64,000 nt of DNA from an uncultured Chloroflexia bacterium (lineage in GTDB: Bacteria > Chloroflexota > Limnocylindria > Limnocylindrales > CSP1-4): NCBI GenBank assembly GCA_963760735.1, contig CAVXEB010000007.1, positions 149,600 through 213,599 of the forward strand, given 5' to 3'. Under the pieces are notes generated by a model that did no database searches, was not told the DNA's origin, and saw only the letters and a list, made by a program, of their open reading frames with translations. The translations under genes were made by a program, and so were the position numbers. Below, in pieces: positions 979-46,679 of the stretch (positions are counted from its first letter, which is position 1; each line of letters opens with the position of its first letter).

Positions 979-2608
<1,630 letters not shown>

Positions 2609-2611
2609 TCA

Positions 2612-2648
2612 GTGCGGCCTCACGGGGCCGTCGAAAGGGTTGGTGCGA
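2612..2648 (-). promoter_or_regulatory. candidate PyrR-binding RNA loop (attenuator/translational operator) in pyrR leader
   Basis: Minus-strand transcript reads ...CCCUUUCGACGGCCCCGUGAGGCCGCAC.... The GCCCCGUGAGGCC core matches the PyrR binding-loop consensus ARUCCNGNGAGGYU at 11 of 13 positions. It sits immediately upstream of the pyrR start. Confidence 0.45.
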
Positions 2649-2799
2649 AGCATACTCAAAGGCTGTCGCGCCCGGACGACGCTGGACTTCGTTGGCGATT
2701 GCGGTCCTCGCTCACGCACCTGAAGTGCGCTCGCTCCGGTCCTCCTCGCCGCCTCGCCCACGCGCGACGAACGCAGTCGGGCCGGCATTCAGGGCGGGG

Positions 2800-3381
2800 T
2801 CAGTAGACCGAGACCGTCACCCAGGCCGTGCCCGAGTACGACGGGCAGCCGCAGATGTCGAAGAAGTCGGGTGTGTACATGTCGATCACGCGGTTCTTCG
2901 CTGAGACGGACGGGCCGTAGTCCGTGACCGTGCGCTCGATACAGCCGCCACGGCCGCAGATGATGATCGTGGTGCCCCGCGGAAGGCGCATCGCGGTCGT
3001 GCCGTGGCCGTAGAAGGTGGCATAGCCGCTGACCTTGTAACGCGGCGGCTTCTGGGCCGATCCGCTGTGGGCCCCGGGCAGCGTGACCATGGGCCGCTTG
3101 ACGCGCGGCGCCGGCTTGCCGGAGCCGGGCTCGGTGAAGACCGTCGATCCGTCGATCCGGCCGGCCGAGGCGTACAGCGAATCGAACGACTCGACGGACT
3201 GTTCCGCCGTTGCGAACGCGGGCACTTGAACCGACTGGAAGGCTGCCGGGTCGGCGACGGAGGCGGGCGTTGGCCCGGCCGATCCGGCGATCCCCGGCAA
3301 CGCGACCAGGGCGAGTGCGGCGGTGAGCGCCGCTCCCGCCACCATCCTGGTGGGTCGCACGATCGGCGCACGATACCGCAA
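2800..3381 (-). CDS. secreted RlpA-like double-psi beta-barrel (DPBB) domain protein
   Basis: N-terminal signal peptide (AGAALTAALALVALPGIAGSAG). C-terminal ...YKVSGYATFYGHG...CIERTVTDYGPSV...VIDMYTPDFFDICG... resembles RlpA/expansin-like DPBB domains. Confidence 0.7.
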   Translation of the reverse strand: MRYRAPIVRPTRMVAGAALTAALALVALPGIAGSAGPTPASVADPAAFQSVQVPAFATAEQSVESFDSLYASAGRIDGSTVFTEPGSGKPAPRVKRPMVTLPGAHSGSAQKPPRYKVSGYATFYGHGTTAMRLPRGTTIIICGRGGCIERTVTDYGPSVSAKNRVIDMYTPDFFDICGCPSYSGTAWVTVSVY

Positions 3382-3429
3382 ATGCCGTATCCGTGGACGG
3401 GTCGTATCGCGTCCACGAGGACGGCGTGA

Positions 3430-5316
3430 TCAGCGGATGACGAGGACCTTGTCGGGGAGCGTCTCGATCTTGCCCACGCCCTGCTCCGTCCAGGCGAGGA
3501 CGAGGATCCGGCCCGTTCCCGAGCCATCCTCGGCGGGCTCGGCCCAGACCAGCTTTCCGTCCGAGATCGAGAAGCCCGTCGTTGCGCGCCTCGCGTCGAG
3601 GAGCGGCTTCTTGAGGTCGACCCGCCCATTGAACGGATCGACATCGTAGAGGCTGAGCGCGCCGACGTTCGGATCCTTCGGGTCGGCGATCCAGACGGCG
3701 AGCTTCGTGCCGCTCGCGTCCCAGCGGGCATCCCAGTCGCTCAGCCGGCCGTGGGCGATGGTCGTCTCGTGGCGTTCCGACCCCTGATCGCCGGTGAGCG
3801 GCGTGGCCGCCGGCGCATCGCTGCCCTCTGCGTCGGCCGCGACCCAATCGCCGATGACGAGCCGGCCATCGTCGGGAAGGTCGACCGGAGCGTCCCCGGA
3901 TCGCCGAAGCGAGCCGGTCCAGTACACGGCGCGGCGACCGGACGGGTCGACGGACGGGCGCCAGGCACTGCCCGTCTGGGGCAGGGCGACCTGCGTGCCG
4001 GTGGCGGGATCGAGGAGGAAGGACTGCCCGGTCCGACCGGTGGCAGGTGACGCGGCCGGGACCTCGGTCGCGTCGACGACCGAGCTGCCGACCATCGTGT
4101 CGTTCGCGAGCCACGACCCGAAGGTGGACCGGTGATCCGTCGTGATCGCGCGGGCCTCCGGCTCGCCGACCTTCCAGACATAGATGTCGGGGCCGCCCGA
4201 TCCATCGGACGGTCGGGCGGTGAAGGCGAACCAGTCGCCGTTCCGCGAATACGCCGCGGACTGGCCGACGAGGACGACGTCCTGGGCGATCTCGATCGCG
4301 CCACCCGGCGTCGGGGACGGCGTGATCGCGACCGACTGGGTCGGCGTCGCCGAGGGGGTGGGCTCGGCCGATGGCGGGGTGCTCGACCCGGCCGGCGTGG
4401 GCGTGGGGGTCGGCGACGGCTTCGAGCTCGCCGCTTCGCCGGACGGCGTCGGGGTCTTCGACGGGGGTGCCGCACTTGCCGTCGTCGCGGGGGTCTCGGA
4501 CGGCGCGACCGTCGCGGACGCCGGCGGCGTTGCCGCGGCGGACTCGCGCGGCGTTGCGGACGGAGTCGGCTTGGGTGCGATGGCGACGACCGAGATCGAC
4601 GCGGGCTGGCTCACGTCGGCTCCGTTGACGACGATCAGCCGCTTGCCGCCCTGATCCCCGAAGACGGTCTGTGGGGTCGTGGTGAGGTCGAGGTGCTGAT
4701 CCTGGACGGGCGCGTTCGCGTCGCATGGCTCGTTGTCGTTGGGGCAGACGGACCGGACGTCGGCCTCGTTCAGCCGGTAGTTGCCGTTCGCGTCGCGACT
4801 GATCCACTGCACGTGCTGGCCCACCGGGATCGGCGTGGCGAAGGCGATATCCGACGCGGCAGGCCCGCTCGCCCCGGCCGCGGTCCCGCCATCCGGTTGC
4901 GCTGTCGGGCCGCCGTCGACGAGAAGCCGGGAGGAGGTCAGCGTCCCGACGACGACGGCCACGACGAGCGCCGCGGCAAACAGGGGAGCCCAGGCGAGCC
5001 GCCGGCGGCGACTGCCACCGGTGACGCCGCGCTGGTCGCGGAAGCGGGATTCATGTTCAATCGCGGCCGCCGTCCGGGCCCACAGGTCACGGGGCGGGGT
5101 CGGCGGCTGGTCGCGCATCGCGCGAAGCTCGGTGTGCTGGGCCTCGTAGGCGACGGCCGTCGCGCGACACTCGGCGCACGCGTTGAGATGTCCGTCGAGC
5201 CAGGCCGCCTCGCCCGGATCGATCACGCCGTCGAGCCGGTCCGACAGGGCGGCCTGGGCGCGGGCGTGCTTCGTCGACCAGTCGTCCGGCCGTCGCGCCC
5301 GTCGCCGGAAGCTCAT
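3430..5316 (-). CDS. transmembrane anti-sigma factor (ZAS-type zinc-binding N-domain, extracytoplasmic beta-propeller-like C-domain)
   Basis: True start MSFRRRARRPDDW... (ATG 5316-5314) overlaps the sigma-factor stop (ATGA). HLNACAECR = HxxxCxxC zinc-binding anti-sigma motif. Single TM segment (LAWAPLFAAALVVAVVVGTL), Pro/Thr-rich linker, C-terminal TolB/PD40-like repeats. The ORF-track 850-aa ORF is a 5' over-extension in another frame than the sigma gene. Confidence 0.8.
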   Translation of the reverse strand: MSFRRRARRPDDWSTKHARAQAALSDRLDGVIDPGEAAWLDGHLNACAECRATAVAYEAQHTELRAMRDQPPTPPRDLWARTAAAIEHESRFRDQRGVTGGSRRRRLAWAPLFAAALVVAVVVGTLTSSRLLVDGGPTAQPDGGTAAGASGPAASDIAFATPIPVGQHVQWISRDANGNYRLNEADVRSVCPNDNEPCDANAPVQDQHLDLTTTPQTVFGDQGGKRLIVVNGADVSQPASISVVAIAPKPTPSATPRESAAATPPASATVAPSETPATTASAAPPSKTPTPSGEAASSKPSPTPTPTPAGSSTPPSAEPTPSATPTQSVAITPSPTPGGAIEIAQDVVLVGQSAAYSRNGDWFAFTARPSDGSGGPDIYVWKVGEPEARAITTDHRSTFGSWLANDTMVGSSVVDATEVPAASPATGRTGQSFLLDPATGTQVALPQTGSAWRPSVDPSGRRAVYWTGSLRRSGDAPVDLPDDGRLVIGDWVAADAEGSDAPAATPLTGDQGSERHETTIAHGRLSDWDARWDASGTKLAVWIADPKDPNVGALSLYDVDPFNGRVDLKKPLLDARRATTGFSISDGKLVWAEPAEDGSGTGRILVLAWTEQGVGKIETLPDKVLVIR

Positions 5317-5966
5317 CGGGCACCCCGCGATGGATGGTTGGTGGCCGCTCGGGCCGCCTCCGCCTCGGATTCGGCAGCGGCCTCGGCGTCGCGCTCGGCC
5401 GCGAGCGCCTGCCGGAGGCTCTCGCGGGCCCGGGTCAGGAGCGCCCGAGCCGCGACGTGGCTCACGCCCAGGGCCGCGGCAAGCTCGAGGCCGGTGAGGT
5501 CGTGGAGCTCGGCCAGGAGGAGTGCGGCACGCTGGCGCTCGGGGATCCGCTCGAGGGCCCGCTGCATGTCCGAGGAGAGGTGGGCGTCCATCACCAGCCG
5601 CTCGGTCGAGGGGGCGGCGCCGCGGCTCTCGCCGGTCCATGGCAGGAATCGCACGATCTTCTGGCGCCGGATGTGATCGAGGGCGACCCGGTGCGCGATC
5701 TGGTAGAGCCAGGCCCTGGCGTTCTCCGGCTTCTCGAGCGTGTCGTAGTTGCGATACGCCTTCACGAACGCGTCCTGGGTGAGGTCGGCGGCGAGCTCCG
5801 GATCCCGCAGCATCCGGATCAGGTAGGCGTAGATCTCGCCGTGGTGGGCTGCGAACAGCTCCTCGACGAAGCCCGCGGCGGCATCGTGCTCCCAGGCGCC
5901 GCTCATGGCTGCGCCCCGACCGAAACCGCGGGTCGTGCCGATCCGGCTGTCGAGCGCGCCGACCAT
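5313..5966 (-). CDS. ECF (sigma-70 family) RNA polymerase sigma factor
   Basis: Regions 2 and 4 recognisable (DLTQDAFVKAYRNYD..., ...LTGLELAAALGVSHVAARALLTRARESLRQAL HTH). GGAGG 6 nt upstream of ATG 5966. Alternative start at 5906. Coupled to the anti-sigma gene. Confidence 0.85.
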   Translation of the reverse strand: MVGALDSRIGTTRGFGRGAAMSGAWEHDAAAGFVEELFAAHHGEIYAYLIRMLRDPELAADLTQDAFVKAYRNYDTLEKPENARAWLYQIAHRVALDHIRRQKIVRFLPWTGESRGAAPSTERLVMDAHLSSDMQRALERIPERQRAALLLAELHDLTGLELAAALGVSHVAARALLTRARESLRQALAAERDAEAAAESEAEAARAATNHPSRGAR

Positions 5967-7096: not shown

Positions 7097-7921
7097 TCAG
7101 CGCGTCCCGGCGAGGGACGGCATCGCGGCAGGCCGCTCGATCGGGACGCTCGCGGCCGCAAGGTCCGTGTCGTCGACGCGGACGTCGACGTCGATCGCCG
7201 CCGCGAACGCCCGGGCGAAGACCCGGCCGGCGTGCTCGACGGCCGCCGTCGAGGGCTGCTCCGTGGGCCGGCCTGCCTCGATCGCGATCGACGTCGACAC
7301 GACGCCGGGCATCCCGCAGGCCTCGATCAGATCGAAGTCGGCCAGGTCCGGATCGACGTTGAGGGCGATGCCGTGATAGCTGACGCCGCGCTCGACCCGG
7401 ATCCCGAGGGCACCGATCTTCCGGGGCCGTGGGCCGTCCGCCTCGATCCAGCAGCCTGGATGACCGTCGCGTCGCGTCGCGGCCACGCCGAACGACCCAC
7501 AGGTCTCGACCATTGCGGCCTCCAGCGCTCGGACGAACGGCCGGAGCATCAACCCCCGCCGGGACAGGGCGATGATCGGATACGCGACGAGCTGGCCCGG
7601 GCCGTGGTAGGTGACCTCGCCGCCACGCTCGACCCGGATGACGTCGATCCGGCGCGCCTCGAGCTCGGCGGCCGAGGCGAGGACGTGCGTCTCGTCCGCC
7701 TGACGGCCCAGGGTCAGGACGCGCTCGTGCTCGACCAGGAGCAGGCGATCGCCGATCTCGCCGCGGGCGCGGGCAGCCGCCAGCTCCTTCTGGAGCATCC
7801 AGGCCAGGCGATAGGCGCTCCGCCCGAGCCAGACCACGGTCAGCGGACCGGTCTCCGGCGTGTCGATCGGGGCGGCCGAGCCTACCGCCGGCGGAGCGTC
7901 GACCAGGAGGGGTTCATCCAC
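7097..7921 (-). CDS. lipB: lipoyl(octanoyl) transferase
   Basis: LLLVEHERVLTLGR...RGGEVTYHGPGQLVAYPII...KIGALGIRVERGVSYHGIALNV matches LipB catalytic motifs. Start uncertain: GTG at 7921 chosen. The ORF-track 606-aa version has an implausible Arg-rich 5' extension. Confidence 0.8.
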   Translation of the reverse strand: MDEPLLVDAPPAVGSAAPIDTPETGPLTVVWLGRSAYRLAWMLQKELAAARARGEIGDRLLLVEHERVLTLGRQADETHVLASAAELEARRIDVIRVERGGEVTYHGPGQLVAYPIIALSRRGLMLRPFVRALEAAMVETCGSFGVAATRRDGHPGCWIEADGPRPRKIGALGIRVERGVSYHGIALNVDPDLADFDLIEACGMPGVVSTSIAIEAGRPTEQPSTAAVEHAGRVFARAFAAAIDVDVRVDDTDLAAASVPIERPAAMPSLAGTR

Positions 7922-8805: not shown

Positions 8806-9028
8806 GCGGGGAACCTCGGGCGGCGCGAGAACCCCGCGAGGATAGCAGCGGCCGCGGCCGCGAACGGCCCGCGCGGGCCACGCGCGGGCCAGCCAATGTC
8901 GTCGCGCCCGGACGCACCCCGAACCGGGTGCCCGCAGGGTGGACGTTCGGCGTCGTGTGCGGTCAACTCGCCTCGACGTCGCGCGTCTTCGCGCGTCCGT
9001 CACGTCCCGACCACCGCGAGGGGGCACG

Positions 9029-10486
9029 ATGTCGTTCGTCCGATCCGCCGCCGTTGTCGTCCTCGCGCTCGTCATCGCCGCCTGCTCGTCGATCACGAGC
9101 ACGGGCGCGGGCGGGCAGCTGGAGGGGACGCAGTGGGTGCTGCGGGCGTACGCCGACGCCGGGTCGCTGAAGATCGTCCCGGAGACCGTCTTCGCGGACG
9201 CGAAGTTCCAGGGCCACCAGGTCACCGGCCAGTCCGGCTGCAACACCTATCGCGCGCTCTATCAGTCGAGCGGTCGGACCCTCCTGGTCTCCCAGGCCTC
9301 GGCGACGCTCATGGCGTGTGACGAGGCGTCGATGACGTTCGAGCAGACCTATCTGGCGCTGCTCCAGAGCAGCCGGTTCTACGGGGTCGAGCGCGACACC
9401 CTGACGATCTACGACGGGATCGGGTCGGCGAGCCTCGTCTTCGACGCGGCTCCGAAGAATCCGCTGCTCGGACGCTGGGACGTCGACTCGTACCTGGTCC
9501 CGCCGTCCACGATCACGGCGGTGCTTCCCGACACGACGGTCGACGTCGTCTTCGGAATCGCCAGCGTCGGCGGGTCGGCCGGCTGCAACGACTTCACCGG
9601 CACCTACGGGACGAACGGGAACGTCGTGCGGATCAGCCAGCTCGCGACCACCCGGAAGGCGTGCCCCGAGGACGTGATGAACCAGGAGACGGCGTTCCTC
9701 GCCGCCCTCCAGGGCGCGGCGCTCATCGACTACCGGGGTAACCAGGTCAACCTCCAGGACCTCCGGCGCGACCTCACCGTGGCGCTGATCCGGCCGGCCG
9801 CGGAGGCCGCGGCGTCGGCGAGCCCGTCCGCGAGCCAGGCGCCCGCGGCCAGCGCGACGGCGCGCCCGAGTGCCTCCCCGACTCCGTCCCCGACGCCGAC
9901 GAAGGCGCCGACGCCGAAGCCCAGCGCGACCCCGACGAAGGCGCCGACGCCGTCGGTCCCGGTCGAGCCGTCGGCCCGGCCGTCGGCCTCGATCCCGGTC
10001 ATCCCGCCGACGACGACCTGCAACCTGGCCGCCGGCACCGCCACTGTCGCCACGATCGTCTACCCGGGCGACTGGTTTACCGTGACGACGCCGGCCAATC
10101 TCGCGTGCCAGTACTTCTCCCCGGATCCGATCACGGTCCCGTCGGACCCGTCGACGCTCCAGACCCCGGTCATGGCGTCCGTCTCGTCGACGCCGTACGC
10201 CGACGCGATCGCCGCGGCGACGGACCCGACGAACTGGACCGTGACGCAGACCGGCAGCGCGAACTCGCCCAGCGGGACGACCTTCACGTGCATCGACGCG
10301 ACCGCCGTGACGGACGCGTCGGGGATCGCGGTGGGACAATCGCGTGGCTCGTGCCTGATCGACGTCGGGGCCGCGGGCACCGTGATCATCCAGACGATCG
10401 GCTCGGCCACCGACCCGACGTATGAGGCCTACAGCGCGGTGGTCCTGCTGATGACGCTGCAGTCGACGTTCACGCCGACCGCCTGA
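9029..10486 (+). CDS. lipoprotein with two HslJ-like META (DUF306) domains and Pro/Thr-rich linker
   Basis: Start MSFVRSAAVVVLALVIAACSS (lipobox IAAC). Two copies of the motif LEGTQWVL...GQSGCNTY...L.ACDE...E..YL.AL...Y....D.L....G. The same domain family occurs in the 45778-46884 gene. Confidence 0.75.
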   Translation: MSFVRSAAVVVLALVIAACSSITSTGAGGQLEGTQWVLRAYADAGSLKIVPETVFADAKFQGHQVTGQSGCNTYRALYQSSGRTLLVSQASATLMACDEASMTFEQTYLALLQSSRFYGVERDTLTIYDGIGSASLVFDAAPKNPLLGRWDVDSYLVPPSTITAVLPDTTVDVVFGIASVGGSAGCNDFTGTYGTNGNVVRISQLATTRKACPEDVMNQETAFLAALQGAALIDYRGNQVNLQDLRRDLTVALIRPAAEAAASASPSASQAPAASATARPSASPTPSPTPTKAPTPKPSATPTKAPTPSVPVEPSARPSASIPVIPPTTTCNLAAGTATVATIVYPGDWFTVTTPANLACQYFSPDPITVPSDPSTLQTPVMASVSSTPYADAIAAATDPTNWTVTQTGSANSPSGTTFTCIDATAVTDASGIAVGQSRGSCLIDVGAAGTVIIQTIGSATDPTYEAYSAVVLLMTLQSTFTPTA

Positions 10487-10604: not shown

Positions 10605-13600
10605 GTGACTCCACCGCACCACCGCCCGACCGCACACGCCCGGACATCGCGCGTTCACCTCATGGCGTTCCTCCAGATGTTCCTGGTCGTCGCCACGCTC
10701 GTCGCCCCGGTTTCGGGGATGGCGGCCGATTCGAGTTCCTCCGGCGGTACGCCGTCCTCGGCCGAGCCGACGAGCCAGCCCGAGCCGGATCCGTCGAGCT
10801 CGCCGACGCCTACGCCGACGCCCACCCCGGAGCCGGTCGCCGAGCCATCACCGGAGCCGAATCCGTCCGCCGAATCCCCCTCGCCCGCGGCCGAGTCACC
10901 CGCACCGACACCCGAGACGCCGGCGCCCACCGCCGAGCCGACGGTCGCGCCGACCGACGCGCCGACCGTGGCACCGGCCGCCACCCGCGACTTCGTCGTC
11001 ACGTTCGCCCCCGGGACGAACGCAACCGCGCGCGCGAGCATCCTCGCGGACGCCGGCGCCGAGGTCGTCGACACGATCGCGCCACTGAGGATGGCCGTCA
11101 TCCGCGTCGTGACCGGCTCGTCCGTCGTCGCGACCCTGCAGGATCGGACCGAAGTCGTCCGCGTGGAGCCCGACCGCGTCCGGGAGGCCGAGGCGGCACC
11201 GGACGATCCCGGCTATGCCGACCAGTGGTCACTCGGCCGGATCGGCTGGGACCGGGTCCACGACACGCTCGATCCCACGGGTTCCGTCGTCGTCGCCGTC
11301 CTCGACACCGGCGTCGACGCGGAGCATTCGGATCTCGCCGGACGGCTCGTCTCGGGCGTCTCGCTCGTTCCCGGCGGGGATCCGATGGCGGACCCGAACG
11401 GCCACGGCACGGCGATGGCCGGCATCATCGCCGCCGTCACCGACAACGGCGAGGGCATCGCGGGGATCGGCTGGTCCGGCGTGAAGGTCATGCCCGTCAC
11501 CGTCCTCGGTGTCGACGGGCTCGGCCAGGACAGCGACATCATCGAGGGCATCGTCTGGGCGGTGGACCACGGCGCGAGCGTCGTCAACCTCTCGTTCAGC
11601 AACCCTGGCTACAGTGCCGCCCTCCAGGCCGCCGTCGACTACGCCTGGGATCACGATGTCGTCGTCGTCGCGGCGACCGGCAACGACGGCTCGAGCGCGC
11701 CGACCTACCCGGCCGGCGATCGCGGCGTCGTCGGGGTCTCGAACACGAACCGGGCCGATGAGCTCGACGGCTCCTCGAACCACGGAGCTGACACGTTCCT
11801 CGGCGCGCCGGGGACCGACATCGCGACGCTCCTCGCGGGCGGCGGCACGACGTCCGTCAACGGAACGTCCGCGTCGTCCGCCGAGGTCGCGGCGTCGGCG
11901 GCGCTGCTCCGGGCGATCGACCCGGCGGCCTCGAACGCGGTGATCGTCGGGCGGCTGGCGCGGAGCGCCGCCGACGTCGGCACGCGGTCCGAGACGGGCA
12001 ACGGCCGGCTCGACCTCGCGCGTGCCGCGGCCGACCATGGTTCCGCCGGTGTGAAGCCGCTCGGCGCGGCGCCGACCGGCAGCGGTGGGCCGTTCGTCGG
12101 GCCGTACGTCGCGGCGGCGGCAACGGTCCAGGCGACAACGACCCTGAACGGCTCCGTCGGGAGCATCAGCGTCGCTCCGGGCGCCTCCATCACGCTCGTG
12201 ATGTTCGTGAACACGAACGGCGCGTCGCCGGCCAACAACTGGTTCTCGTCCCGCTGGGCGCTCGCGACCTCCGCGCCGCTGCCCGGCGCGATGACCTGCG
12301 TCGATCACGCCAACCACGTCGGTGGCGGCGCCTACTCGGAGACGATGACGATCACCGCGCCTGCGGCAGCGGGGACGTACAACCTCTACCTCTACGCCTA
12401 CAACGGCGACGCCTGCGGAGCGGGCCAGAGCGCCCTGTTCACGCGCGCGAACGCGCTCGACAACGTCGCTCCGACCGTCACGATCAACCAGGCGGTCGGC
12501 CAGCTCGACCCGACGAACGGGGCCACGATCACGTTCACGGTCGTCTTCAGCGAGCCGGTCGTCGGCTTCGCCACCGGCGACGTGTCGTTCGCCGGCAGCA
12601 CGGTCCCGGGGACCCTCGTCGGGACCGTCTCGGGTGCCGGCCCGACGTACACCGTCGCGGTCACCGGGATGACCGGCTCGGGAACCGTCGTCGCGTCCCT
12701 CGCCGCCGGCGTCGCGGCCGATCCCGCGGGCAACGCCAACGCCGCCTCGACCTCGACCGACAACACCGTCACCCGCGACGTCGTCGTCCCGACGGTCACG
12801 ATCAACCAGGCGGTCGGCCAGGTCGACCCGACGAACACCAGCCCGATCCTCTTCACCGTCGTCTTCAGCGAGCCGGTCACCGGCTTCATCACCGGCGACG
12901 TGACGTTCGCCGGCACGGCCGGCGGGGCGAAGGTCGGGACCGTCTCGGGCTCGGGTGCGAACTACACCGTCAGCGTCACCGGGATGACGACGTCCGGCAC
13001 GGTCATCGCCTCGATCGCGGCCAGCCGGGCGATCGATCTCGCGGGCAACAACAACACCGCCTCGAGCTCGACCGACAACAGCGTCACGTGGGACGTCACG
13101 GCTCCGACCGTGACGATCAACCAGGCGGTCGGCCAGGTCGACCCGACGAACACCAGCCCGATCACCTACACGGTCGTCTTCAGCGAGCCGGTCACCGGCT
13201 TCGCGACGGGCGACGTGACGTTCACCGGCACCGCCGGCGGGACGAAGGTCGGCGCGGTCAGCGGCGGTCCGACAACCTACACCGTCAGCGTCACCGGGAT
13301 GACGACGCCCGGCACGGTCATCACCTCGATCGCGGCCGGTGTCGCGACCGACCTGTCCGGCAACGCCAACGCGGTCTCGACCTCGGCCGACAACAGCGTC
13401 ACCTGGGACAACGTCGCGCCGACCGTCACGATCAACCAGGCGGTCGGCCAGCTCGACCCGACGAACGGGGCCACGATCACGTTCACGGTCGTCTTCAGCG
13501 AGCCGGTCGTCGGCTTCGCCACCGGCGACGTGTCGTTCGCCGGCAGCACGGTCCCGGGGACCCTCGTCGGGACCGTCTCGGGTGCCGGCCCGACGTACAC

Positions 13601-16600
13601 CGTCGCGGTCACCGGGATGACCGGCTCGGGAACCGTCGTCGCGTCCCTCGCCGCCGGCGTCGCGGCCGATCCCGCGGGCAACGCCAACGCCGCCTCGACC
13701 TCGACCGACAACACCGTCACCCGCGACGTCGTCGTCCCGACGGTCACGATCAACCAGGCGGTCGGCCAGGTCGACCCGACGAACACCAGCCCGATCCTCT
13801 TCACCGTCGTCTTCAGCGAGCCGGTCACCGGCTTCATCACCGGCGACGTGACGTTCGCCGGCACGGCCGGCGGGGCGAAGGTCGGGACCGTCTCGGGCTC
13901 GGGTGCGAACTACACCGTCAGCGTCACCGGGATGACGACGTCCGGCACGGTCATCGCCTCGATCGCGGCCAGCCGGGCGATCGATCTCGCGGGCAACAAC
14001 AACGCCGCCTCGAGCTCGACCGACAACAGCGTCACGTGGGACGTCACGGCTCCGACCGTGACGATCAACCAGGCGGTCGGCCAGGTCGACCCGACGAACA
14101 CCAGCCCGATCACCTACACGGTCGTCTTCAGCGAGCCGGTCACCGGCTTCGCGACGGGCGACGTGACGTTCACCGGCACCGCCGGCGGGACGAAGGTCGG
14201 CGCGGTCAGCGGCGGTCCGACAACCTACACCGTCAGCGTCACCGGGATGACGACGCCCGGCACGGTCATCACCTCGATCGCGGCCGGTGTCGCGACCGAC
14301 CTGTCCGGCAACGCCAACGCGGTCTCGACCTCGGCCGACAACAGCGTCACCTGGGACAACGTCGCTCCGACCGTCACGATCAACCAGGCGGTCGGCCAGC
14401 TCGACCCGACGAACGGGGCCACGATCACGTTCACGGTCGTCTTCAGCGAGCCGGTCGTGGGCTTCGCCACCGGCGACGTGTCGTTCGCCGGCAGCACGGT
14501 CCCGGGGACCCTCGTCGGGACCGTCTCGGGTGCCGGCCCGACGTACACCGTCGCGGTCACCGGGATGACCGGCTCGGGAACCGTCGTCGCGTCCCTCGCC
14601 GCCGGCGTCGCGGCCGATCCCGCGGGCAACGCCAACGCCGCCTCGACCTCGACCGACAACACCGTCACCCGCGATGTGACGCCGCCCACCGCGACCATCG
14701 ACCTGCAGGCCGGTTCGGACACGGGCGCCTCGAGCACGGACGACATCACGAACGCAACCACCCTCGTCTTCGACGTCACGTTCAGCGAGTCGGTGACCGG
14801 CCTCCTCGCCAATGACTTCTCCAACGTCGGGACCGCCACCACCTGCGCCTTCGGGGCTCCGACCGGCGCCGGTACGACCTACACCGTCACCGTGACCGGA
14901 TGCTCGCAGGGCACCGTGATCGTGCGGATCCGGGTCAACGCGGTCACGGATGTCGTGGGCAACAACAACGCGGTGATCAACGGCCCGACCGTCACCATCG
15001 ACCGGACCGGACCCACGGTCACGATCAACCAGGCGGTCGGCCAGGTCGACCCGACGAACGCCAGCCCGATCCTCTACACGGTCGTCTTCAGCGAGCCGGT
15101 CACCGGCTTCGCCACGGGCGACGTGTCGTTCACCGGCAGCACCTCGGGCGGGGCGAAGGTCGGGACCGTCTCGGGCGGTCCGACGACGTACACCGTCAGC
15201 GTCACCGGGATGACGACGCCGGGGACGGTGATCGCGACGATCGGGGCCGGCGTCGCGACCGATCTCAGCGGCAACGCCAACGTCGTCTCGACCTCGACCG
15301 ACAACACGGTCGCCTGGGACGCCACGCCTCCGACCGTCACGATCAACCAGGCGGTGGGCCAGGTCGACCCGACGAACGCCAGCCCGATCACGTTTACCGT
15401 GGTCTTCAGCGAGACGGTCACCGGCTTCGCCACCGGCGACGTCAGCTTCACCGGCAGCACGGTCGGCGGGACCCTCGTGGGGACCGTCTCCGGAGGTCCG
15501 ACCACGTACACCGTCGCGGTCACCGGGATGACCGGCTCAGGGACCGTCGTCGCCTCGCTCGGCGCCGGCGTGGCGACGGACGCGACCGGCAACGGCAACG
15601 TCACCTCGACCTCGACCGACAACACGGTCACATTCGACAACGTCGCCCCGACCGTCACGATCAACCAGGCCGTCGGCCAGGCTGATCCCACGAACACCAG
15701 CCCGATCCTCTACACCGTCGTGTTCAGCGAACCGGTCATCGGCTTCGCGACCGGCGACGTGACCTTTGCCGGCAGCACGTCCGGCGGGACGAAGGTCGAC
15801 ACGGTCAGCGGATCGGGCGCGAACTACACCGTGACCGTCACCGGGATGACGACCTCCGGCAGCCTGATTGCCGCGATCGCCGCCAGCCAGGCGACCGATC
15901 TCGCAGGCAACAACAACGCCGCGTCGACATCGTCCGACAACACCGTCACGTGGGACGTCACCGCCCCGACCGTCACGATCAACCAGGCGGTCGGTCAGGT
16001 CGACCCGACGAACGCGAGCCCGATCACGTTCACAGTCGTGTTCAGCGAGCCGGTCACCGGCTTCGCGACCGGCGACGTCACGTTCACGGGGACGGCCGGC
16101 GGGACGAAGGTCGGCACGGTCAGCGGGTCCGGCGCGAACTACACCGTGACCGTCACAGGGATGACGATCTCCGGCACCGTGATCGCCACGATCGCGGTAG
16201 GCGTCGCGGCCGACCTCGCGGGCAACGGCAACACGGCCTCGACGTCGACCGACAACACCGTGACCTGGAACCGCGCCACCCATCTCGGGTTCGGCCAGGG
16301 GCCGACGGACGCGATCTATCGCTCGACGATCAGCCCGGCCGTGACCGTCCTCGTCCTCGACGACAACGGCTTCGTCGTGACCGAGAGCTCTGCATCTGTC
16401 TCGCTGACCCTGGCCCCGGCGGGTCCGACCCTCGGCGGGACGGTCACCGTCGCGGCCGTCAATGGCATCGCGACGTTCAACGACCTGACCGTCGACCAGG
16501 TCGGGACCTACAGCCTGAATGCGGCCAGCGCCGGCTTGATCGGGACGTCGAGCGCGACGTTTTCGATCCTGCCCGCCCCGCTGACGATCACGGCGACCGA

Positions 16601-19010
16601 CCAGTTCAAGATCTACGGGCAGACGCTGGCGTTCGCGGGAACGGAATTCACGGTGAGCGGGCTGCTCGGACCCGACTCGGTCGGGGGCGTCACCCTCACC
16701 AGCCCCGGGTCGCCCGCCACGGCGTCGGTGGTCGGCAGCCCGTACCCGATCACGCCGTCGAATGCCGTCGGCGCCGGCCTCGCGAACTACACGATCACCT
16801 ACCTGAACGGTCAGCTCACGGTGCTGCCGGCGGTCCTCGTCGTCATCGCGAACGATCGGACCAAGACGTACGGCCAGAGCGTGGTCTTCGCAGGCACCGA
16901 GTTCTCCGTCTTCGGTCTGGTCAACACCGACACGGTCACGAGCGTCACGTTGTCCAGCCCGGGCACGGTCGCCACGGCGACCGTCGCCGGGAGTCCCTAC
17001 CCGATCACGCCGTCGTCGGCGATCGGCAGCGGCCTCGCGAACTACGTGATCTTCTACGGCCCCGGCCAGCTCACCGTGACGCCGGCGCCGCTGGCGATCA
17101 CCGCGAACGACCGGACCAAGACCTACGGCCAGACGGTCGTCTTCGCCGGGACGGAGTTCTCCACGAGCGGCCTGCTCAACGCCGATACGGTCACGAGCGT
17201 CAGCCTGGCCAGCTCGGGCGCGGTCGCCACGGCGACCGTCGCCGGGAGTCCCTACCCGATCACCCCGTCGGCGGCGGTCGGCAGCGGGCTGTCCAATTAC
17301 GCGATCACCTACCTCGACGGCGAGATGGGTGTGACCGCCGCGCCTCTCGCGATCACCGCCGATGACCGGACGAAGACCTACGGCCAGACGGTCACGTTCG
17401 CCGGGACGGAGTTCTCCACGAGCGGCCTGCTCAACGCCGATACGGTCACGAGCGTCAGCCTGGCCAGCCCCGGAGCGGTCGACACCGCGACGGTCGTAGG
17501 CAGCCCGTACCCGATCACGCCGTCGGCGGCGGTCGGGACAGGCCTCGGCAACTACACGATCACCTACGTCGACGGCGAGCTGACCGTCACGCCGGCCACC
17601 GCCGTCATCGTCGTGACGGGCTTCTCCGTCACCTATGACGCGCTGCCACACACGGCGACCGGCTCTGTGACAGGCGTGTTCGGCGAGAATCTCTCTGCGG
17701 GTCTCGACCTGTCGGCGACAACCCGGACGAACGTCGGCCTCTACAGCGATCCATGGACGTTCACGGATCCCGCGGGCAACTACCTGGCCGACAGCGGGAC
17801 CGTGGACAGCGACATCAGCCAGGCCGCGTTGACGATCACCGCCGACGACGCGACGAAGACCTACGGCCAGGCGGTCACCTTCGCCGGGACGGAGTTCTCC
17901 ACGAGCGGGCTGCTCGGGACCGACACGGTCACGAGTGTCACCCTCGCGAGCCCCGGTGCGAGCCCGACGGCCACCGTCGCCGGGAGCCCGTACCCGATCA
18001 CCCCATCGGCGGCGGTCGGCAGCGGCCTTGCGAACTACGCGATCAGCTACGTCGACGGTGCGCTCACGGTCATGCAGGCCGCGCTCACCGTCACCGCCGC
18101 TGACCAGACGAAGCCGTTCGGGGTCACGTTCGTCTTCGCCGGCACCGAGTTCTCGACCGTCGGCCTCGTGAACGGCGACACGGTCGACTCCGCGACCCTG
18201 ACGAGCGCCGGCTCACCGGCCCTCGCCGCACCGACCACGTATCCGATCCTCCTCTCGAACGCGGTCGGGACGGGCCTGGCCAACTACGCGATCAGCTACG
18301 TGGCGGGCACCCTGACGGTCGGCAACACGGCGCCGGTCATCGGCGATGCCAGCGTCACGACGGACGCGATGACCGCGGTCAGCGGCGCGGTCACCGTGAC
18401 CGATCCGGACACTGGCCAGACGGTGACATTGACAATCGCGACCGGACCGGCCAACGGCACGGCCACCGTGGCCGGTGACGGCTCGTTCGTCTACACGCCG
18501 ACCGGCACGTTCACCGGCCGCGACTCGTTCTCGATCCAGGGCTGCGACGACGCCCTGATCCCGGCCTGCGACACTGGCACCGTCGACGTGGAGATCATCC
18601 CGGTCGCCGTCGCCGACACCGGCGTCACGACCGAGGGCAAGACCATCGAGGTCGATGTCGAGGCCAACGACATCGGGGACGCCGGACCTCTCCAGATCGT
18701 CGGGCAGCCGGCGCACGGGACGGCAACGATCGGCTCGATCATCTACACGCCCGATGCCGGCTTCAGCGGCGTCGACCAGGTCGTCTACCGGATTTGCAGC
18801 CCGAACGACCAGACCGTCTGCGACGACGGGACCCTGACGATCACCGTCAACGCCGCCCTACCGGACACCGACGCCGGCGTGATCCTGTCGACCCCGCTCG
18901 GACCGGTCCGGTCCGGGAGCGCGTGGCTCGCCGGGATCCTGGCCCTGCTGTTCGCGGTGGGTGCGGGGGCCGCGGTCGCCATCGGTCGCCGCCGCCGGGA
19001 CGTCGACTGA
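10605..19010 (+). CDS. giant (2801 aa) secreted cell-surface subtilisin-like serine protease with Ig-like, MBG-like and cadherin-like repeat domains and C-terminal membrane anchor
   Basis: Single uninterrupted ORF. Signal peptide; PT-rich linker; I9-like propeptide; S8 catalytic domain (DTGVD, NGHGTAMAG, GTSASSAEVAA). About 12 Ig-like domains of ~105 aa (VTINQAVGQxDPTN...FSEPVTGF...GTVSG.G..YTV.VTGMT..GTV...). 6 MBG-like repeats (TA.D.TKTYGQ..VFAGTEFS..GL...DTV.SV.L.S.G...A.V.GSPYPITPS.AVG.GL.NY.I.Y..G.LTV) plus one variant MBG-like domain. 2 cadherin-like domains. C-terminal LPDTDAG + hydrophobic segment + RRRRD. Confidence 0.85.
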   Translation: MTPPHHRPTAHARTSRVHLMAFLQMFLVVATLVAPVSGMAADSSSSGGTPSSAEPTSQPEPDPSSSPTPTPTPTPEPVAEPSPEPNPSAESPSPAAESPAPTPETPAPTAEPTVAPTDAPTVAPAATRDFVVTFAPGTNATARASILADAGAEVVDTIAPLRMAVIRVVTGSSVVATLQDRTEVVRVEPDRVREAEAAPDDPGYADQWSLGRIGWDRVHDTLDPTGSVVVAVLDTGVDAEHSDLAGRLVSGVSLVPGGDPMADPNGHGTAMAGIIAAVTDNGEGIAGIGWSGVKVMPVTVLGVDGLGQDSDIIEGIVWAVDHGASVVNLSFSNPGYSAALQAAVDYAWDHDVVVVAATGNDGSSAPTYPAGDRGVVGVSNTNRADELDGSSNHGADTFLGAPGTDIATLLAGGGTTSVNGTSASSAEVAASAALLRAIDPAASNAVIVGRLARSAADVGTRSETGNGRLDLARAAADHGSAGVKPLGAAPTGSGGPFVGPYVAAAATVQATTTLNGSVGSISVAPGASITLVMFVNTNGASPANNWFSSRWALATSAPLPGAMTCVDHANHVGGGAYSETMTITAPAAAGTYNLYLYAYNGDACGAGQSALFTRANALDNVAPTVTINQAVGQLDPTNGATITFTVVFSEPVVGFATGDVSFAGSTVPGTLVGTVSGAGPTYTVAVTGMTGSGTVVASLAAGVAADPAGNANAASTSTDNTVTRDVVVPTVTINQAVGQVDPTNTSPILFTVVFSEPVTGFITGDVTFAGTAGGAKVGTVSGSGANYTVSVTGMTTSGTVIASIAASRAIDLAGNNNTASSSTDNSVTWDVTAPTVTINQAVGQVDPTNTSPITYTVVFSEPVTGFATGDVTFTGTAGGTKVGAVSGGPTTYTVSVTGMTTPGTVITSIAAGVATDLSGNANAVSTSADNSVTWDNVAPTVTINQAVGQLDPTNGATITFTVVFSEPVVGFATGDVSFAGSTVPGTLVGTVSGAGPTYTVAVTGMTGSGTVVASLAAGVAADPAGNANAASTSTDNTVTRDVVVPTVTINQAVGQVDPTNTSPILFTVVFSEPVTGFITGDVTFAGTAGGAKVGTVSGSGANYTVSVTGMTTSGTVIASIAASRAIDLAGNNNAASSSTDNSVTWDVTAPTVTINQAVGQVDPTNTSPITYTVVFSEPVTGFATGDVTFTGTAGGTKVGAVSGGPTTYTVSVTGMTTPGTVITSIAAGVATDLSGNANAVSTSADNSVTWDNVAPTVTINQAVGQLDPTNGATITFTVVFSEPVVGFATGDVSFAGSTVPGTLVGTVSGAGPTYTVAVTGMTGSGTVVASLAAGVAADPAGNANAASTSTDNTVTRDVTPPTATIDLQAGSDTGASSTDDITNATTLVFDVTFSESVTGLLANDFSNVGTATTCAFGAPTGAGTTYTVTVTGCSQGTVIVRIRVNAVTDVVGNNNAVINGPTVTIDRTGPTVTINQAVGQVDPTNASPILYTVVFSEPVTGFATGDVSFTGSTSGGAKVGTVSGGPTTYTVSVTGMTTPGTVIATIGAGVATDLSGNANVVSTSTDNTVAWDATPPTVTINQAVGQVDPTNASPITFTVVFSETVTGFATGDVSFTGSTVGGTLVGTVSGGPTTYTVAVTGMTGSGTVVASLGAGVATDATGNGNVTSTSTDNTVTFDNVAPTVTINQAVGQADPTNTSPILYTVVFSEPVIGFATGDVTFAGSTSGGTKVDTVSGSGANYTVTVTGMTTSGSLIAAIAASQATDLAGNNNAASTSSDNTVTWDVTAPTVTINQAVGQVDPTNASPITFTVVFSEPVTGFATGDVTFTGTAGGTKVGTVSGSGANYTVTVTGMTISGTVIATIAVGVAADLAGNGNTASTSTDNTVTWNRATHLGFGQGPTDAIYRSTISPAVTVLVLDDNGFVVTESSASVSLTLAPAGPTLGGTVTVAAVNGIATFNDLTVDQVGTYSLNAASAGLIGTSSATFSILPAPLTITATDQFKIYGQTLAFAGTEFTVSGLLGPDSVGGVTLTSPGSPATASVVGSPYPITPSNAVGAGLANYTITYLNGQLTVLPAVLVVIANDRTKTYGQSVVFAGTEFSVFGLVNTDTVTSVTLSSPGTVATATVAGSPYPITPSSAIGSGLANYVIFYGPGQLTVTPAPLAITANDRTKTYGQTVVFAGTEFSTSGLLNADTVTSVSLASSGAVATATVAGSPYPITPSAAVGSGLSNYAITYLDGEMGVTAAPLAITADDRTKTYGQTVTFAGTEFSTSGLLNADTVTSVSLASPGAVDTATVVGSPYPITPSAAVGTGLGNYTITYVDGELTVTPATAVIVVTGFSVTYDALPHTATGSVTGVFGENLSAGLDLSATTRTNVGLYSDPWTFTDPAGNYLADSGTVDSDISQAALTITADDATKTYGQAVTFAGTEFSTSGLLGTDTVTSVTLASPGASPTATVAGSPYPITPSAAVGSGLANYAISYVDGALTVMQAALTVTAADQTKPFGVTFVFAGTEFSTVGLVNGDTVDSATLTSAGSPALAAPTTYPILLSNAVGTGLANYAISYVAGTLTVGNTAPVIGDASVTTDAMTAVSGAVTVTDPDTGQTVTLTIATGPANGTATVAGDGSFVYTPTGTFTGRDSFSIQGCDDALIPACDTGTVDVEIIPVAVADTGVTTEGKTIEVDVEANDIGDAGPLQIVGQPAHGTATIGSIIYTPDAGFSGVDQVVYRICSPNDQTVCDDGTLTITVNAALPDTDAGVILSTPLGPVRSGSAWLAGILALLFAVGAGAAVAIGRRRRDVD
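11217..12015 (+). other. S8 (subtilase) catalytic domain within giant ORF; Asp ~11307, His ~11403, Ser ~11868
   Basis: Motifs VAVLDTGVD / DPNGHGTAMAGIIAA / VNGTSASSAEVAASAALL in canonical D-H-S order and spacing. Confidence 0.8.
12460..14674 (+). repeat. near-identical 948-bp tandem repeat (2.3 copies) inside giant protease gene; each unit encodes three Ig-like domains (316 aa)
   Basis: ggcggtcggccagctcgacccgacgaacgggg recurs at 12491 and 13439 (period 948). Antisense ORFs 12398-12916, 13277-13864 and 14225-14842 translate identically. Only about 1-2 nt differences between units (e.g. NNNTASSS vs NNNAASSS). Third unit diverges after ~14674. Confidence 0.9.
16560..18330 (+). other. array of 6 MBG-like repeats plus one variant domain within giant ORF
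   Basis: Repeated ~85-aa units containing ...TKTYGQ.V.FAGTEFST.GLL..DTVTSV.L.SPG...ATV.GSPYPITPS.AVG.GLANY.I.Y..G.LTV. Partially identical at nucleotide level (e.g. ~17140 vs ~17400). Confidence 0.65.
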
Positions 19011-31462: not shown

Positions 31463-31538
31463 GCGGGAGTAACTCAGTTGGCAGAGTGTCAGCTTCCCAA
31501 GCTGAATGTCGCGGGTTCGAACCCCGTCTCCCGCTCCA
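31463..31538 (+). tRNA. tRNA-Gly (anticodon CCC)
   Basis: Cloverleaf folds by hand. Acceptor GCGGGAG/CTCCCGC; D-arm ACTC/GAGT; anticodon stem TCAGC/GCTGA with loop TTCCCAA; T-arm GCGGG-TTCGAAC-CCCGT; discriminator T; encoded CCA. Confidence 0.9.
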
Positions 31539-33692: not shown

Positions 33693-33758
33693 CATGGTGA
33701 TCCACGCGTTGTCACATGGTGATCCACGCGTTGTCACATGGTGATCCACGCGTTGCAC
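33693..33758. repeat. 22-bp direct repeat catggtgatccacgcgttgtca, 2.9 tandem copies
   Basis: Read directly: catggtgatccacgcgttgtca | catggtgatccacgcgttgtca | catggtgatccacgcgttg(cacgc). Intergenic, immediately 5' of the tRNA-3'-half remnant at 33778. Confidence 0.85.
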
Positions 33759-34808: not shown

Positions 34809-35795
34809 CTTCCCAAGCTGAATGTCGCGGGTTCGAACCCCAGTCCTCCCGCTCCTCTTCCCTCGCCTGACGTTCGCCTGAGCGCGACCGCAGTCAGGGG
34901 AGCGGCTCGTAGACGAGCGTCCCCCCGTCCTCGAGGGTGATGGTCAGGGCGTTCGACGCAATCGCGTAGCTCGCGCTGTTCGTCAGGGCCAGCACGTACA
35001 GGTCGCCGTGGGACCCGTCACCGCAGGGCACGATCGCCGACGGCCCGGGCACGATCGACAGGCCGCCCGCCGCCGTCGCCGTCCACTGGCCGACGAGGGT
35101 GTTGCAGTCGGCGATCGCGCTGAACTGCCCGCCCGCCTTGAACGAGACGGTGTACTTCGAGCGCTCGGCGGCCGGGATGACGCCCTGATGCACGGGGTCG
35201 CGCGTGGTGATGCTGACGAGCTGCCAGTTCGTCCCGACCAGGTCGGCGCCCGGGCTCGGGGCGGGTGTCGGGGACGGCGTCGGCTTGGGCGTCGGGGTCG
35301 GTGTCGGGGTCGGGGTCGGGGTCGGTGTGGGCGTCGGTGACTTCGTGGGTGCCTCGGTCGGCTCCGTCGTCGGCGAGGCGGACGCGCTCGGCGGGGCCGA
35401 AGCGGTCACCGTGGGCGTCGGGCTCGCGGTCGGCGTGGCCGTCGGGGTCGGGCTCGGTGACGCGCTCGGTGACGGGCTCGCGCTGGCTGACGCGGAAGGC
35501 GACGAGCTGGCGCTGGGTGACGCCGAGGGACTCGGGACCACCGCCGTGCCGGAGCTCGCCACGAACGTGCCGGTCCCACCGTCGGCTGTCGTGAGCGTCA
35601 GCTGACCGCCGGCGATGACCCAGGTCGTCACATTCGCGAGCTCGTGGGCGAAGATGTCCCCGTACGACCCGTCCGGGCAGGCCACGAGCGTGCTTGGCCC
35701 GGGCGTGATCGTGATGCCGTCCTTGCCGCGCAGGCTGTAGGTCCCGGCCAGGGCATTGCAGTCCGCCCTGGCGCTGAACGTGCCGTCGGTGGCGA
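34809..35795. repeat. 985-bp direct repeat, copy A (100% identical to 45693-46679); begins with tRNA-Gly 3'-half remnant 34809-34855
   Basis: Identity starts exactly at cttcccaag (anticodon loop of tRNA-Gly CCC) and ends at ...tgccgtcggtggcga. ORFs in all frames translate identically in both copies. Offset 10884 bp. Confidence 0.9.
34894..35795 (-). pseudogene. 5'-truncated duplicate of the META-domain gene at 45778-46884
   Basis: C-terminal ~300 codons are identical to 45778-46677. The upstream part is replaced by unrelated sequence. It lacks the signal/TM segment and first META half, so it is probably non-functional. Confidence 0.7.
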
Positions 35796-35995
35796 GGCCC
35801 CGACCCCGCGATCCGCGGGTGGCGCAACCGCGCAACGTGTTCGCGACCCTTGACACGGTTGCACACGAGTGCATACACTCGTGTGCCGCAACGCGTGTTC
35901 GTTCCTGTAGCGGACCACGCGACGTCGTCGGCCCCGAGGCGTGGCGGTCAGTCGTTGCCGATGGACCGGTTGTCCATCGGCGCGAGGAGCGTCGG

Positions 35996-44451: not shown

Positions 44452-44527
44452 GCGGGAGTAACTCAGTTGGCAGAGTGTCAGCTTTCCAAGCAGAATGTCG
44501 CGGGTTCGAATCCCGTCTCCCGCTCCA
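44452..44527 (+). tRNA. tRNA-Gly (anticodon TCC); one A.A mismatch in anticodon stem
   Basis: Same scaffold as tRNA-Gly(CCC) (identical acceptor, D-arm and T-arm apart from AAT in the T-loop) but with anticodon loop TTTCCAA. Anticodon stem TCAGC/GCAGA has an A-A mismatch at 29-41. Confidence 0.8.
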
Positions 44528-45692: not shown

Positions 45693-46679
45693 CTTCCCAA
45701 GCTGAATGTCGCGGGTTCGAACCCCAGTCCTCCCGCTCCTCTTCCCTCGCCTGACGTTCGCCTGAGCGCGACCGCAGTCAGGGGAGCGGCTCGTAGACGA
45801 GCGTCCCCCCGTCCTCGAGGGTGATGGTCAGGGCGTTCGACGCAATCGCGTAGCTCGCGCTGTTCGTCAGGGCCAGCACGTACAGGTCGCCGTGGGACCC
45901 GTCACCGCAGGGCACGATCGCCGACGGCCCGGGCACGATCGACAGGCCGCCCGCCGCCGTCGCCGTCCACTGGCCGACGAGGGTGTTGCAGTCGGCGATC
46001 GCGCTGAACTGCCCGCCCGCCTTGAACGAGACGGTGTACTTCGAGCGCTCGGCGGCCGGGATGACGCCCTGATGCACGGGGTCGCGCGTGGTGATGCTGA
46101 CGAGCTGCCAGTTCGTCCCGACCAGGTCGGCGCCCGGGCTCGGGGCGGGTGTCGGGGACGGCGTCGGCTTGGGCGTCGGGGTCGGTGTCGGGGTCGGGGT
46201 CGGGGTCGGTGTGGGCGTCGGTGACTTCGTGGGTGCCTCGGTCGGCTCCGTCGTCGGCGAGGCGGACGCGCTCGGCGGGGCCGAAGCGGTCACCGTGGGC
46301 GTCGGGCTCGCGGTCGGCGTGGCCGTCGGGGTCGGGCTCGGTGACGCGCTCGGTGACGGGCTCGCGCTGGCTGACGCGGAAGGCGACGAGCTGGCGCTGG
46401 GTGACGCCGAGGGACTCGGGACCACCGCCGTGCCGGAGCTCGCCACGAACGTGCCGGTCCCACCGTCGGCTGTCGTGAGCGTCAGCTGACCGCCGGCGAT
46501 GACCCAGGTCGTCACATTCGCGAGCTCGTGGGCGAAGATGTCCCCGTACGACCCGTCCGGGCAGGCCACGAGCGTGCTTGGCCCGGGCGTGATCGTGATG
46601 CCGTCCTTGCCGCGCAGGCTGTAGGTCCCGGCCAGGGCATTGCAGTCCGCCCTGGCGCTGAACGTGCCGTCGGTGGCGA
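45693..46679. repeat. 985-bp direct repeat, copy B (intact copy); begins with tRNA-Gly 3'-half remnant 45693-45739
   Basis: See copy A. Here the repeat is continuous with the intact 5' end of the META-domain gene. Confidence 0.9.

Follow-up and report, generated by a model that had tools for sequence, protein, structure and literature searches.

A near-identical three-domain tandem repeat in the stalk of a putatively surface-anchored subtilisin-like protease from an uncultured Chloroflexota bacterium

How does a protein-coding gene come to hold copies of a segment of almost a kilobase that scarcely differ even at synonymous sites? The question is raised by a protease gene in a DNA stretch of 64,000 nucleotides (nt) from an uncultured Chloroflexia bacterium (GenBank assembly GCA_963760735.1, contig CAVXEB010000007.1, positions 149,600 to 213,599 of the forward strand), hereafter called the window; coordinates given without a locus name refer to it. 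The gene is a single open reading frame (ORF) of 2,801 amino acids at 10605-19010 on the + strand and encodes a subtilase with a long immunoglobulin (Ig)-like stalk, which is predicted to be anchored at the surface. A preliminary description had placed in this gene, at 12460-14674, an in-frame array of about 2.3 near-perfect 948-bp units with three Ig-like domains each, and had proposed very recent expansion or ongoing concerted evolution. Our analysis suggests that the array is probably a genuine three-domain repeat, homogenised by recombination, and that it belongs to the stalk of a subtilisin-like protease on the cell surface of a Limnocylindria-like Chloroflexota.

The higher-order tandem repeat is genuine. 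In a base-by-base comparison at an offset of 948 nt, identity with this period spans 12459-14674. At 316 codons per unit, these 2,216 nt amount to 2.34 units, and the extent and copy number first described are thereby reproduced. Only 4 of the 1,268 position pairs are mismatched (99.7% identity), and a repeat search of the window also returned the 948-nt spacing at 99-100% identity. The 316-residue units are 99.7-100% identical as protein and 99.7-99.8% identical as DNA, and identity of this degree along 2.2 kb rules out a coincidental match. The array reads ABC-ABC-A in the frame of the S8 protease gene, where A, B and C are three Ig-like domains of Big_12 types:

12459-13406, + strand: repeat unit 1 (A1-B1-C1), with domain starts at 12471, 12789 and 13104.
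13407-14354, + strand: repeat unit 2 (A2-B2-C2), which differs from unit 1 at 2 of 948 positions.
14355-14674, + strand: partial repeat unit 3 (A3 alone), which differs at 2 positions from unit 2 and at 1 from unit 1.

Three unit positions (12, 105 and 598) are variable in the whole array:

Unit position 12, + strand: T at 12470, G at 13418, T at 14366; Ala codon GCT versus GCG, synonymous.
Unit position 105, + strand: C at 12563, C at 13511, G at 14459; Val, synonymous.
Unit position 598, + strand: A at 13056, G at 14004; Thr versus Ala.

Unit differences of one or two nucleotides had been noted before, and both examples of that description, gctccg versus gcgccg and NNNTASSS versus NNNAASSS, were recovered exactly among these sites.

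The array belongs to a longer series of stalk domains, which start at 12471, 12789, 13104, 13419, 13737, 14052, 14367, 14685, 15012, 15330, 15648 and 15966. In the protein identity matrix, the three domain types have 71-79% pairwise identity, and domains i and i+3 are ~100% identical. Tandem Repeats Finder describes the series as a 315-nt period with 12 copies and 75% match (12468-16268). Downstream of the near-perfect part, the series continues as follows:

14675-15011, + strand: X, a Big_13-type Ig-like domain (Pfam Big_13, 31.1 bits versus a cut-off of 27).
15012-16283, + strand: four older Big_12 domains (D9-D12), diverged and in phase with the periodicity of the array.

The four diverged Ig-like copies that had been reported after the array are therefore present, but the X domain, which intervenes first, had been overlooked. 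X is 39-42% identical to the Big_12 domains in the protein matrix and occupies a B-type slot of the three-domain rhythm. By amino acid identity, D9 is closest to C (84%), D10 to A (80%), D11 to B (83-84%) and D12 to B (82%), and A1 and D10 have a 35-nt exact run in common. This order suggests that D9-D11 represent an older copy of the array that has since been interrupted or overwritten. In an AlphaFold model, a single unit folds into three separate all-beta domains with a mean predicted local distance difference test score (pLDDT) of 84; the predicted template modelling score (pTM) is 0.52, so that the inter-domain geometry, and hence a rod shape, is not fixed by the model. A Foldseek comparison of the unit model with the PDB returned multi-Ig chains only (antibodies, the S-layer protein SbsC and a protocadherin). 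By sequence, the unit had zero matches in the PDB, and a full-text literature search on Big_12 and PF19078 gave nothing relevant.

We scanned a profile of the prodomain and S8 domain (alignment A1) over the GTDB representative genomes and obtained 80 loci. The closest ones belong to metagenome-assembled genomes (MAGs) labelled 'uncultured Chloroflexia bacterium' of the MFD set and to Candidatus Limnocylindrales, and remoter ones belong to Actinomycetota. The MFD MAGs were built from Nanopore reads with metaFlye assembly and Medaka polishing (PMC12313526). None of the related loci came from the window's own species, the best nucleotide identity in the protease part being ~78%. Other searches for conspecifics agreed: an exact 41-mer of domain A had 0 matches in the Joint Genome Institute (JGI) metagenomes, the unit as a protein query had a best foreign match of 80% identity, and blastn of the flanks versus 82 related loci reached ~78-79% identity at best. 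One locus, L048, shares upstream synteny with the window.

The orthologue P0005 (locus L001) comes from the nearest species with the same domain layout. The best matches of the window's A, B and C domains are the corresponding P0005 domains, at 81, 84 and 78% amino acid identity. Both genes have the layout (ABC)n-A-X, with n=2 in the window and n=3 in L001, and both arrays start 12-14 nt ahead of the first PTVT codons and end at the A/X junction. The copy number is 2.34 in the window versus 3.38 in L001, so the two species differ by exactly one 948-nt unit. The synonymous divergence (dS) of the protease domain is 0.74. Orthologous units differ at dS 0.43-0.54, compared with 0-0.012 within either array, and their ratio of nonsynonymous to synonymous divergence (dN/dS) is ~0.25-0.37. 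Since the array ends in A before X in both genes, at least two A copies must have existed in the common ancestor. Ancestral A copies combined with a within-array dS of nearly zero and a much larger dS between orthologues are the classic signature of concerted evolution. Because the identity extends to synonymous sites, selection at the protein level is not its cause.

Similar arrays are found across the family. Four lineages of long-read Chloroflexota MAGs carry their own arrays with 99.8-100% identity, and arrays in the closest loci are as follows:

L001 (P0005): period 948 nt, 3.33-3.38 copies, 99.91% identity.
L002 (P0002): period 945 nt, 2.0 copies, 100% identity.
L002 (P0002): period 963 nt, 2.6 copies, 99.81% identity.
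L002 (P0002), MBG part: period 738 nt, 2.4 copies, 99.9% identity.
L003: period 945 nt, 2.7 copies, 99.94% identity.
L003, MBG part: period 738 nt, 3.4 copies, 100% identity.

Further loci have many other periods, from 243 to 1,440 nt. We cut 46 related loci into 300-nt tiles and scored each tile by its most similar intragenic copy. Tile identity is sharply bimodal: for 370 tiles this copy is at least 99.5% identical, while each percentage point between 80 and 99% holds ~20-30 tiles, a ~30-fold excess at the top. In 23 of the 46 loci, at least three tiles reach at least 99%. A roughly flat distribution would be expected if duplicates merely aged, and the spike therefore indicates that young or homogenised copies are over-represented. 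We also considered whether the three-domain unit is a device to avoid identical neighbours, which might misfold. This idea was rejected, as the relatives L019 (312 nt, 7.9 copies) and L021 (267 nt, 13 copies) carry single-domain arrays of at least 97% identity.

Within one species, homogenisation can be followed between alleles. The 90% cluster of the orthologue P0007 contains three full-length conspecific alleles of 2,089 amino acids from three samples (L083, L084 and L085). Each is 6,270 nt long and has the identical array structure, with 2.35 copies of a 963-nt unit at gene nt 2001-4267 and 3.65 copies of a 255-nt unit at 4555-5484. The alleles differ pairwise by 8-29 nt, and 15 of the 27 differences between L083 and L084 lie inside the arrays. 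Pairs with the same substitution at equivalent repeat positions number 9, a count that none of 20,000 permutations reached (maximum 2). In four MBG copies the pattern is, for instance, GGGG versus CCCC; others are CCTT versus CCCC, CCA versus AAA and, for the 963-nt array, CGG versus CCC. These substitutions have spread between copies since the strains diverged, and concerted evolution is thus seen directly. The distance between anchors on either side of the 963-nt array is 2,400 nt in four conspecific contigs and 2,408 nt in a noisier fifth. We note that L086, a low-quality 9.5-kb contig and the fourth conspecific one, has a 74-nt out-of-frame MBG-like insertion in its MBG array (~7517-7590) that splits the gene; this insertion reflects either a true partial duplication by slippage or a fault of the assembly.

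Could the identity come from the assembly, with the copy number mis-set or real differences between units erased by the assembler or polisher? Near-identical 948-nt units are hard for assemblers, and the related contigs reflect this: 32 of 38 non-MFD contigs stop no more than 2.2 kb beyond the protease domain, compared with 3 of 42 long-read MFD contigs (Fisher p = 6e-13), and a count from the locus table shows the same for 16 of the 20 non-MFD contigs that extend 10 kb or more upstream. This bears out the earlier warning that short reads are unreliable for copy number; the stalk copy number of short-read MAGs should not be trusted, as most such contigs simply stop at the stalk. Frameshifts inside the arrays are present in several related long-read contigs (P0011, P0005, L048 and L086), and the window was judged from the assembly. 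On the other hand, its ORF is intact through 8.4 kb, and the three unit-specific single-base differences persist, which argues that polishing did not merge the copies. Typical long reads would also exceed the 2.2-kb array in length, provided that the 793-kb source contig was assembled from such reads, as those of the relatives were. Arrays of this kind are present in independent assemblies of four other lineages, P0007 has an identical array structure in three independent samples, and the complete isolate genome of Oryzobacter telluris (L058) has repeats of at least 97% identity downstream of a related protease domain. We consider an assembly artefact very unlikely. Purifying selection on the protein sequence of the domains, acting in place of recombination at the DNA level, would agree with the dN/dS of orthologous stalk units between species. 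It predicts many synonymous differences, whereas the three variable sites in the window comprise two synonymous ones and one that alters the residue, and dS within arrays is almost zero despite its high value between orthologues. The identity at synonymous sites already refutes this explanation.

A further alternative is a static duplication. Here the array would be a recent one-off event with no ongoing homogenisation or length change, and stalk length would have no function. There are only 2.3 copies in the window, the three variable sites carry no conversion-tract signal, and copy number is invariant in the five conspecific contigs of P0007. These facts fit less well with the rest: the (ABC)n-A-X layout has the same boundaries in two genes at dS ~0.5, so the A copies predate the split and yet are at least 99.7% identical in each lineage; the bimodal identity recurs across the family; and the concordant substitutions in conspecific alleles are homogenisation in action. 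A static duplication is therefore unlikely, and we favor recombination that keeps the units alike, in agreement with the preliminary proposal of recent expansion or concerted evolution. Several points nevertheless weigh against this interpretation. Systematic Nanopore or Medaka errors, or polishing of repeats, could inflate homogeneity and mimic concordant differences. The span of the Big_12/Big_13 array is unchanged in five P0007 contigs from five samples, which means that length change is not fast at 0.1-0.5% divergence. The copy number in the window and any polymorphism rest on one assembly, and with just 2.3 copies one or two duplication events suffice. Surface anchoring is read from sequence features, and no known sorting signal matches. 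A wider proposal is that homogenisation of the super-repeat began before the two species separated and has continued because selection acts on a tunable stalk length of the protease, and that a family of enzyme-headed Periscope proteins exists in soil Limnocylindria; it is a tentative one that we put forward with reserve.

A mechanism for the homogenised repeat can be outlined from these data; in it, we infer surface display, a rod-like stalk, recombination as the agent and an adaptive value of stalk length. Once the protein is exported, its S8 head would sit at the free N-terminal end of an Ig-like chain (Big_12, Big_13, MBG_2 and Big_9) that leads to a C-terminal membrane anchor. Homologous recombination between misaligned units, by unequal crossing-over or gene conversion, would keep the copies near-identical, synonymous sites included, in line with what has been suggested for Periscope Proteins. 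Domains of different types have in common exact runs, in register and 20-51 nt long, most of them where the start of a domain encodes PTVTINQAVGQVDPTN; near-identical units share hundreds of bases. Such runs at the 5' ends of domains may serve as the substrate for in-phase recombination, and exchange between misaligned copies could yield units of one, two or three domains, homogeneous copies and junctions in linkers. Since each period (948, 315, 318 or 255 nt) is divisible by three and the junctions are located in inter-domain linkers, whole domains can be gained or lost with the frame intact. For the same reason, and as the gene has no frame-shifting simple repeat, on/off phase variation, which had been raised as a possibility, is unlikely. 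Variation in stalk length is plausible. By analogy with other Ig-like rods, the length would change in steps of three Ig domains, or ~10-15 nm, and the protein may act like an enzyme-headed 'Periscope Protein'.

The remainder of the gene is organised as follows:

10605-10991, + strand: putative signal peptide (basic stretch, hydrophobic stretch, GMAAD) and a Pro/Thr/Glu-rich linker, read from the translation.
10992-12062, + strand: fervidolysin-like prodomain and subtilisin/thermitase-type S8 domain (Pfam PF22148 and PF00082, E 2e-35).
12063-12458, + strand: spacer of ~130 amino acids between head and stalk, with no significant Pfam match (best Ig_7, E 0.11).
16284-16590, + strand: weakly Invasin_D3-like Ig domain (Pfam E 0.0023, under the family cut-off).
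16581-18330, + strand: array of six MBG_2 domains with a 255-nt period and 70-82% identity, its rhythm broken by one 483-nt spacing.
18399-18845, + strand: two Big_9 domains (Pfam PF17963).
18852-19007, + strand: C-terminal tail with LPDTD, TPLGPV, a hydrophobic helix and RRRRD, a putative membrane anchor (from the translation).

The ORF is unbroken over 8.4 kb with a G+C content of 0.94 at third codon positions, and from Met20 the protein is the same as P0001 (2,782 amino acids), an identical record on a 793,593-bp contig. Pfam assigns to it the fervidolysin-type prodomain, Peptidase_S8, 12 Big_12 stretches, six MBG_2 and two Big_9 domains; the Ig-like complement of the stalk is 11 Big_12 domains and one Big_13, then the MBG_2 array and the two Big_9 domains. 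Tandem Repeats Finder reports a second array with a 255-nt period at 16581-17596.

The assignment of the head to the S8 subtilases, with an Asp-His-Ser triad in a subtilisin fold, is indicated by a PF00082 score of 122.8 bits versus a cut-off of 21.8. The DTG, HGT and GTS catalytic motifs are invariant across nine orthologues (alignment A1). Solved relatives of the catalytic domain include the Ak.1 protease 1dbi as the best (E 2e-39), thermitase and savinase, with E values from 2e-39 to 1e-36. An assignment as mycosin, a type VII secretion-associated protease (TIGR03921), was rejected because 154 bits is below the equivalog cut-off of 278.75.

Both ends of the protein are recognisable in orthologues. 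The G-x-A-A-D-P motif of the N-terminus is kept, and the orthologue tails (alignments A3 and A4) conserve P-[EDQ]-T-D, T-P-[LMI]-G-P-V-P, a membrane helix and RRRR, a layout that resembles sorting signals. LPDTD lies ~20 residues ahead of the helix, and most orthologues have P-E-T-D-T at this place. No LPXTG-type sorting signal was detected, the best NCBIfam tail matches being LAETG (E 0.077) and LAVTG (E 0.32), far under the cut-offs. The tail was also considered as a new general sorting signal, and this was rejected: a hidden Markov model of the tail had 7 matches in 1.84 billion proteins, and the four that were read are fragments of the same family. The C-terminal tail thus appears to be family-specific.

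Two long ORFs in other frames overlap the stalk:

13088-14815, + strand: off-frame ORF, with G+C of 0.96, 0.56 and 0.59 at codon positions 1, 2 and 3.
15537-17651, - strand: off-frame ORF, with 0.94, 0.57 and 0.55 at these positions; it lies outside the near-perfect repeat.

The real gene has 0.59, 0.58 and 0.94. These ORFs had been called spurious by-products of the repeat. They are indeed spurious, as their third-position values of 0.59 and 0.55 versus 0.94 indicate, but they are mainly a product of base composition, because the window has 70.3% G+C and contains 150 ORFs of at least 150 amino acids. ORFs of this kind over the array should not be annotated as genes.

Several other features were observed in the window. 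The gene directly 5' of the protease (8939-10486, + strand) encodes a two-META-domain protein (Pfam E 1e-38) and contains a CCGACG-type repeat coding for Pro and Thr at 9878-9952. At least three META-domain genes are present. A perfect 987-bp dispersed direct repeat (34809-35795 and 45693-46679, 0 mismatches, 10,884 bp apart) covers most of another two-META-domain protein with a Pro/Thr-rich linker (ORF 34894-36033, - strand); recent duplication or conversion of a gene could account for it, and so could an error of assembly. Just past the ORF end at 33678, a perfect tandem repeat with 2.9 copies of the 22-nt unit CATGGTGATCCACGCGTTGTCA occupies 33693-33755. tRNA-Gly genes with the anticodons CCC and TCC are located at 31463-31538 and 44452-44527. 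Genes for extracytoplasmic function (ECF)-type sigma-70 factors (Sigma70_r2, r4_2) lie a few kb from the protease gene in the window (5313-5966, - strand) and near the protease in relatives (L001, 185-772 and 2558-3097; L087, 13345-14406), which may indicate a conserved regulatory neighbourhood.

Several known systems resemble this protein in part. Cell-envelope proteinases, such as lactocepin PrtP and the C5a peptidase ScpA, have an N-terminal S8 head, a beta-sandwich spacer and a C-terminal envelope attachment, and the enzyme is held off the cell. The window protein likewise has an S8 head, a long beta-sandwich spacer and a predicted C-terminal attachment. Unlike them, it has no PA-domain insertion or Fn3-type domains by Pfam and no LPXTG, its catalytic domain is nearest to small secreted subtilisins and thermitase, and its stalk is made of Big_12, Big_13, MBG_2 and Big_9 domains. 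Giant RTX adhesins of the MpIBP and LapA type use long runs of near-identical Ig-like domains as extenders, and Big_12 is also present in proteins labelled Ca2+-binding RTX toxin-like (P0024 and P0146). In contrast to these adhesins, the window protein contains, by Pfam, neither an RTX nor a type I secretion signal; it has a putative N-terminal signal peptide, and a protease head replaces the adhesion modules. In super-repeats such as the SasG G5-E pairs and those of titin and nebulin, and in the higher-order repeats of alpha-satellite DNA, diverged sub-units are duplicated jointly and identity peaks at the distance of a whole unit. The window array is similar in that identity is highest one unit apart and not between neighbours. 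It differs in being a bacterial coding repeat with a three-Ig unit, 2.3 copies and an older in-phase C'-A'-B' layer in the same gene.

The closest parallel is with the Periscope Proteins (SasG/Aap, Rib/alpha C, Sgo_0707 and CdrA; Whelan et al. 2021, PMC8201768; review PMC9704523), which combine an N-terminal functional domain, a stalk of highly identical tandem domains and a C-terminal anchor, and for which homologous recombination has been proposed as the cause of repeat gain and loss (PMC8201768, PMC9704523). The Pfam families MBG_2 (the CdrA repeat) and Big_13 were built in the Periscope study (PMC8201768), and the enzyme-headed examples in the review are autolysins and a lysozyme (PMC9704523). 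The window protein shares with this class a single chain with an N-terminal functional domain, a putative C-terminal anchor and highly identical domain repeats; its 316-residue unit has the repeat length and identity that characterise the class, and both MBG_2 and Big_13 are present. It differs in its subtilisin-type protease head, in the three-domain super-repeat, where neighbours are 71-79% identical and domains i and i+3 are ~100% identical, and in the lack of an LPXTG signal. Its host is an uncultured soil Chloroflexota and not a host-associated pathogen. Variation of repeat number between strains defines the class, and it is absent in the five conspecific contigs of the orthologue P0007. 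The alleles of this orthologue are, subject to the caveat of Nanopore errors, a clean natural case of concerted evolution in a bacterial coding repeat. The window gene is an ordinary example of the variable-length Periscope type with an unusual host and an enzyme head, and none of this is a new principle. The homogenised, variable-length stalk design of pathogen adhesins is also used on a subtilisin-type protease of abundant uncultured soil Chloroflexota and recurs throughout the family. If stalk length is under selection, the Periscope concept would extend from host-pathogen interfaces to free-living soil bacteria.

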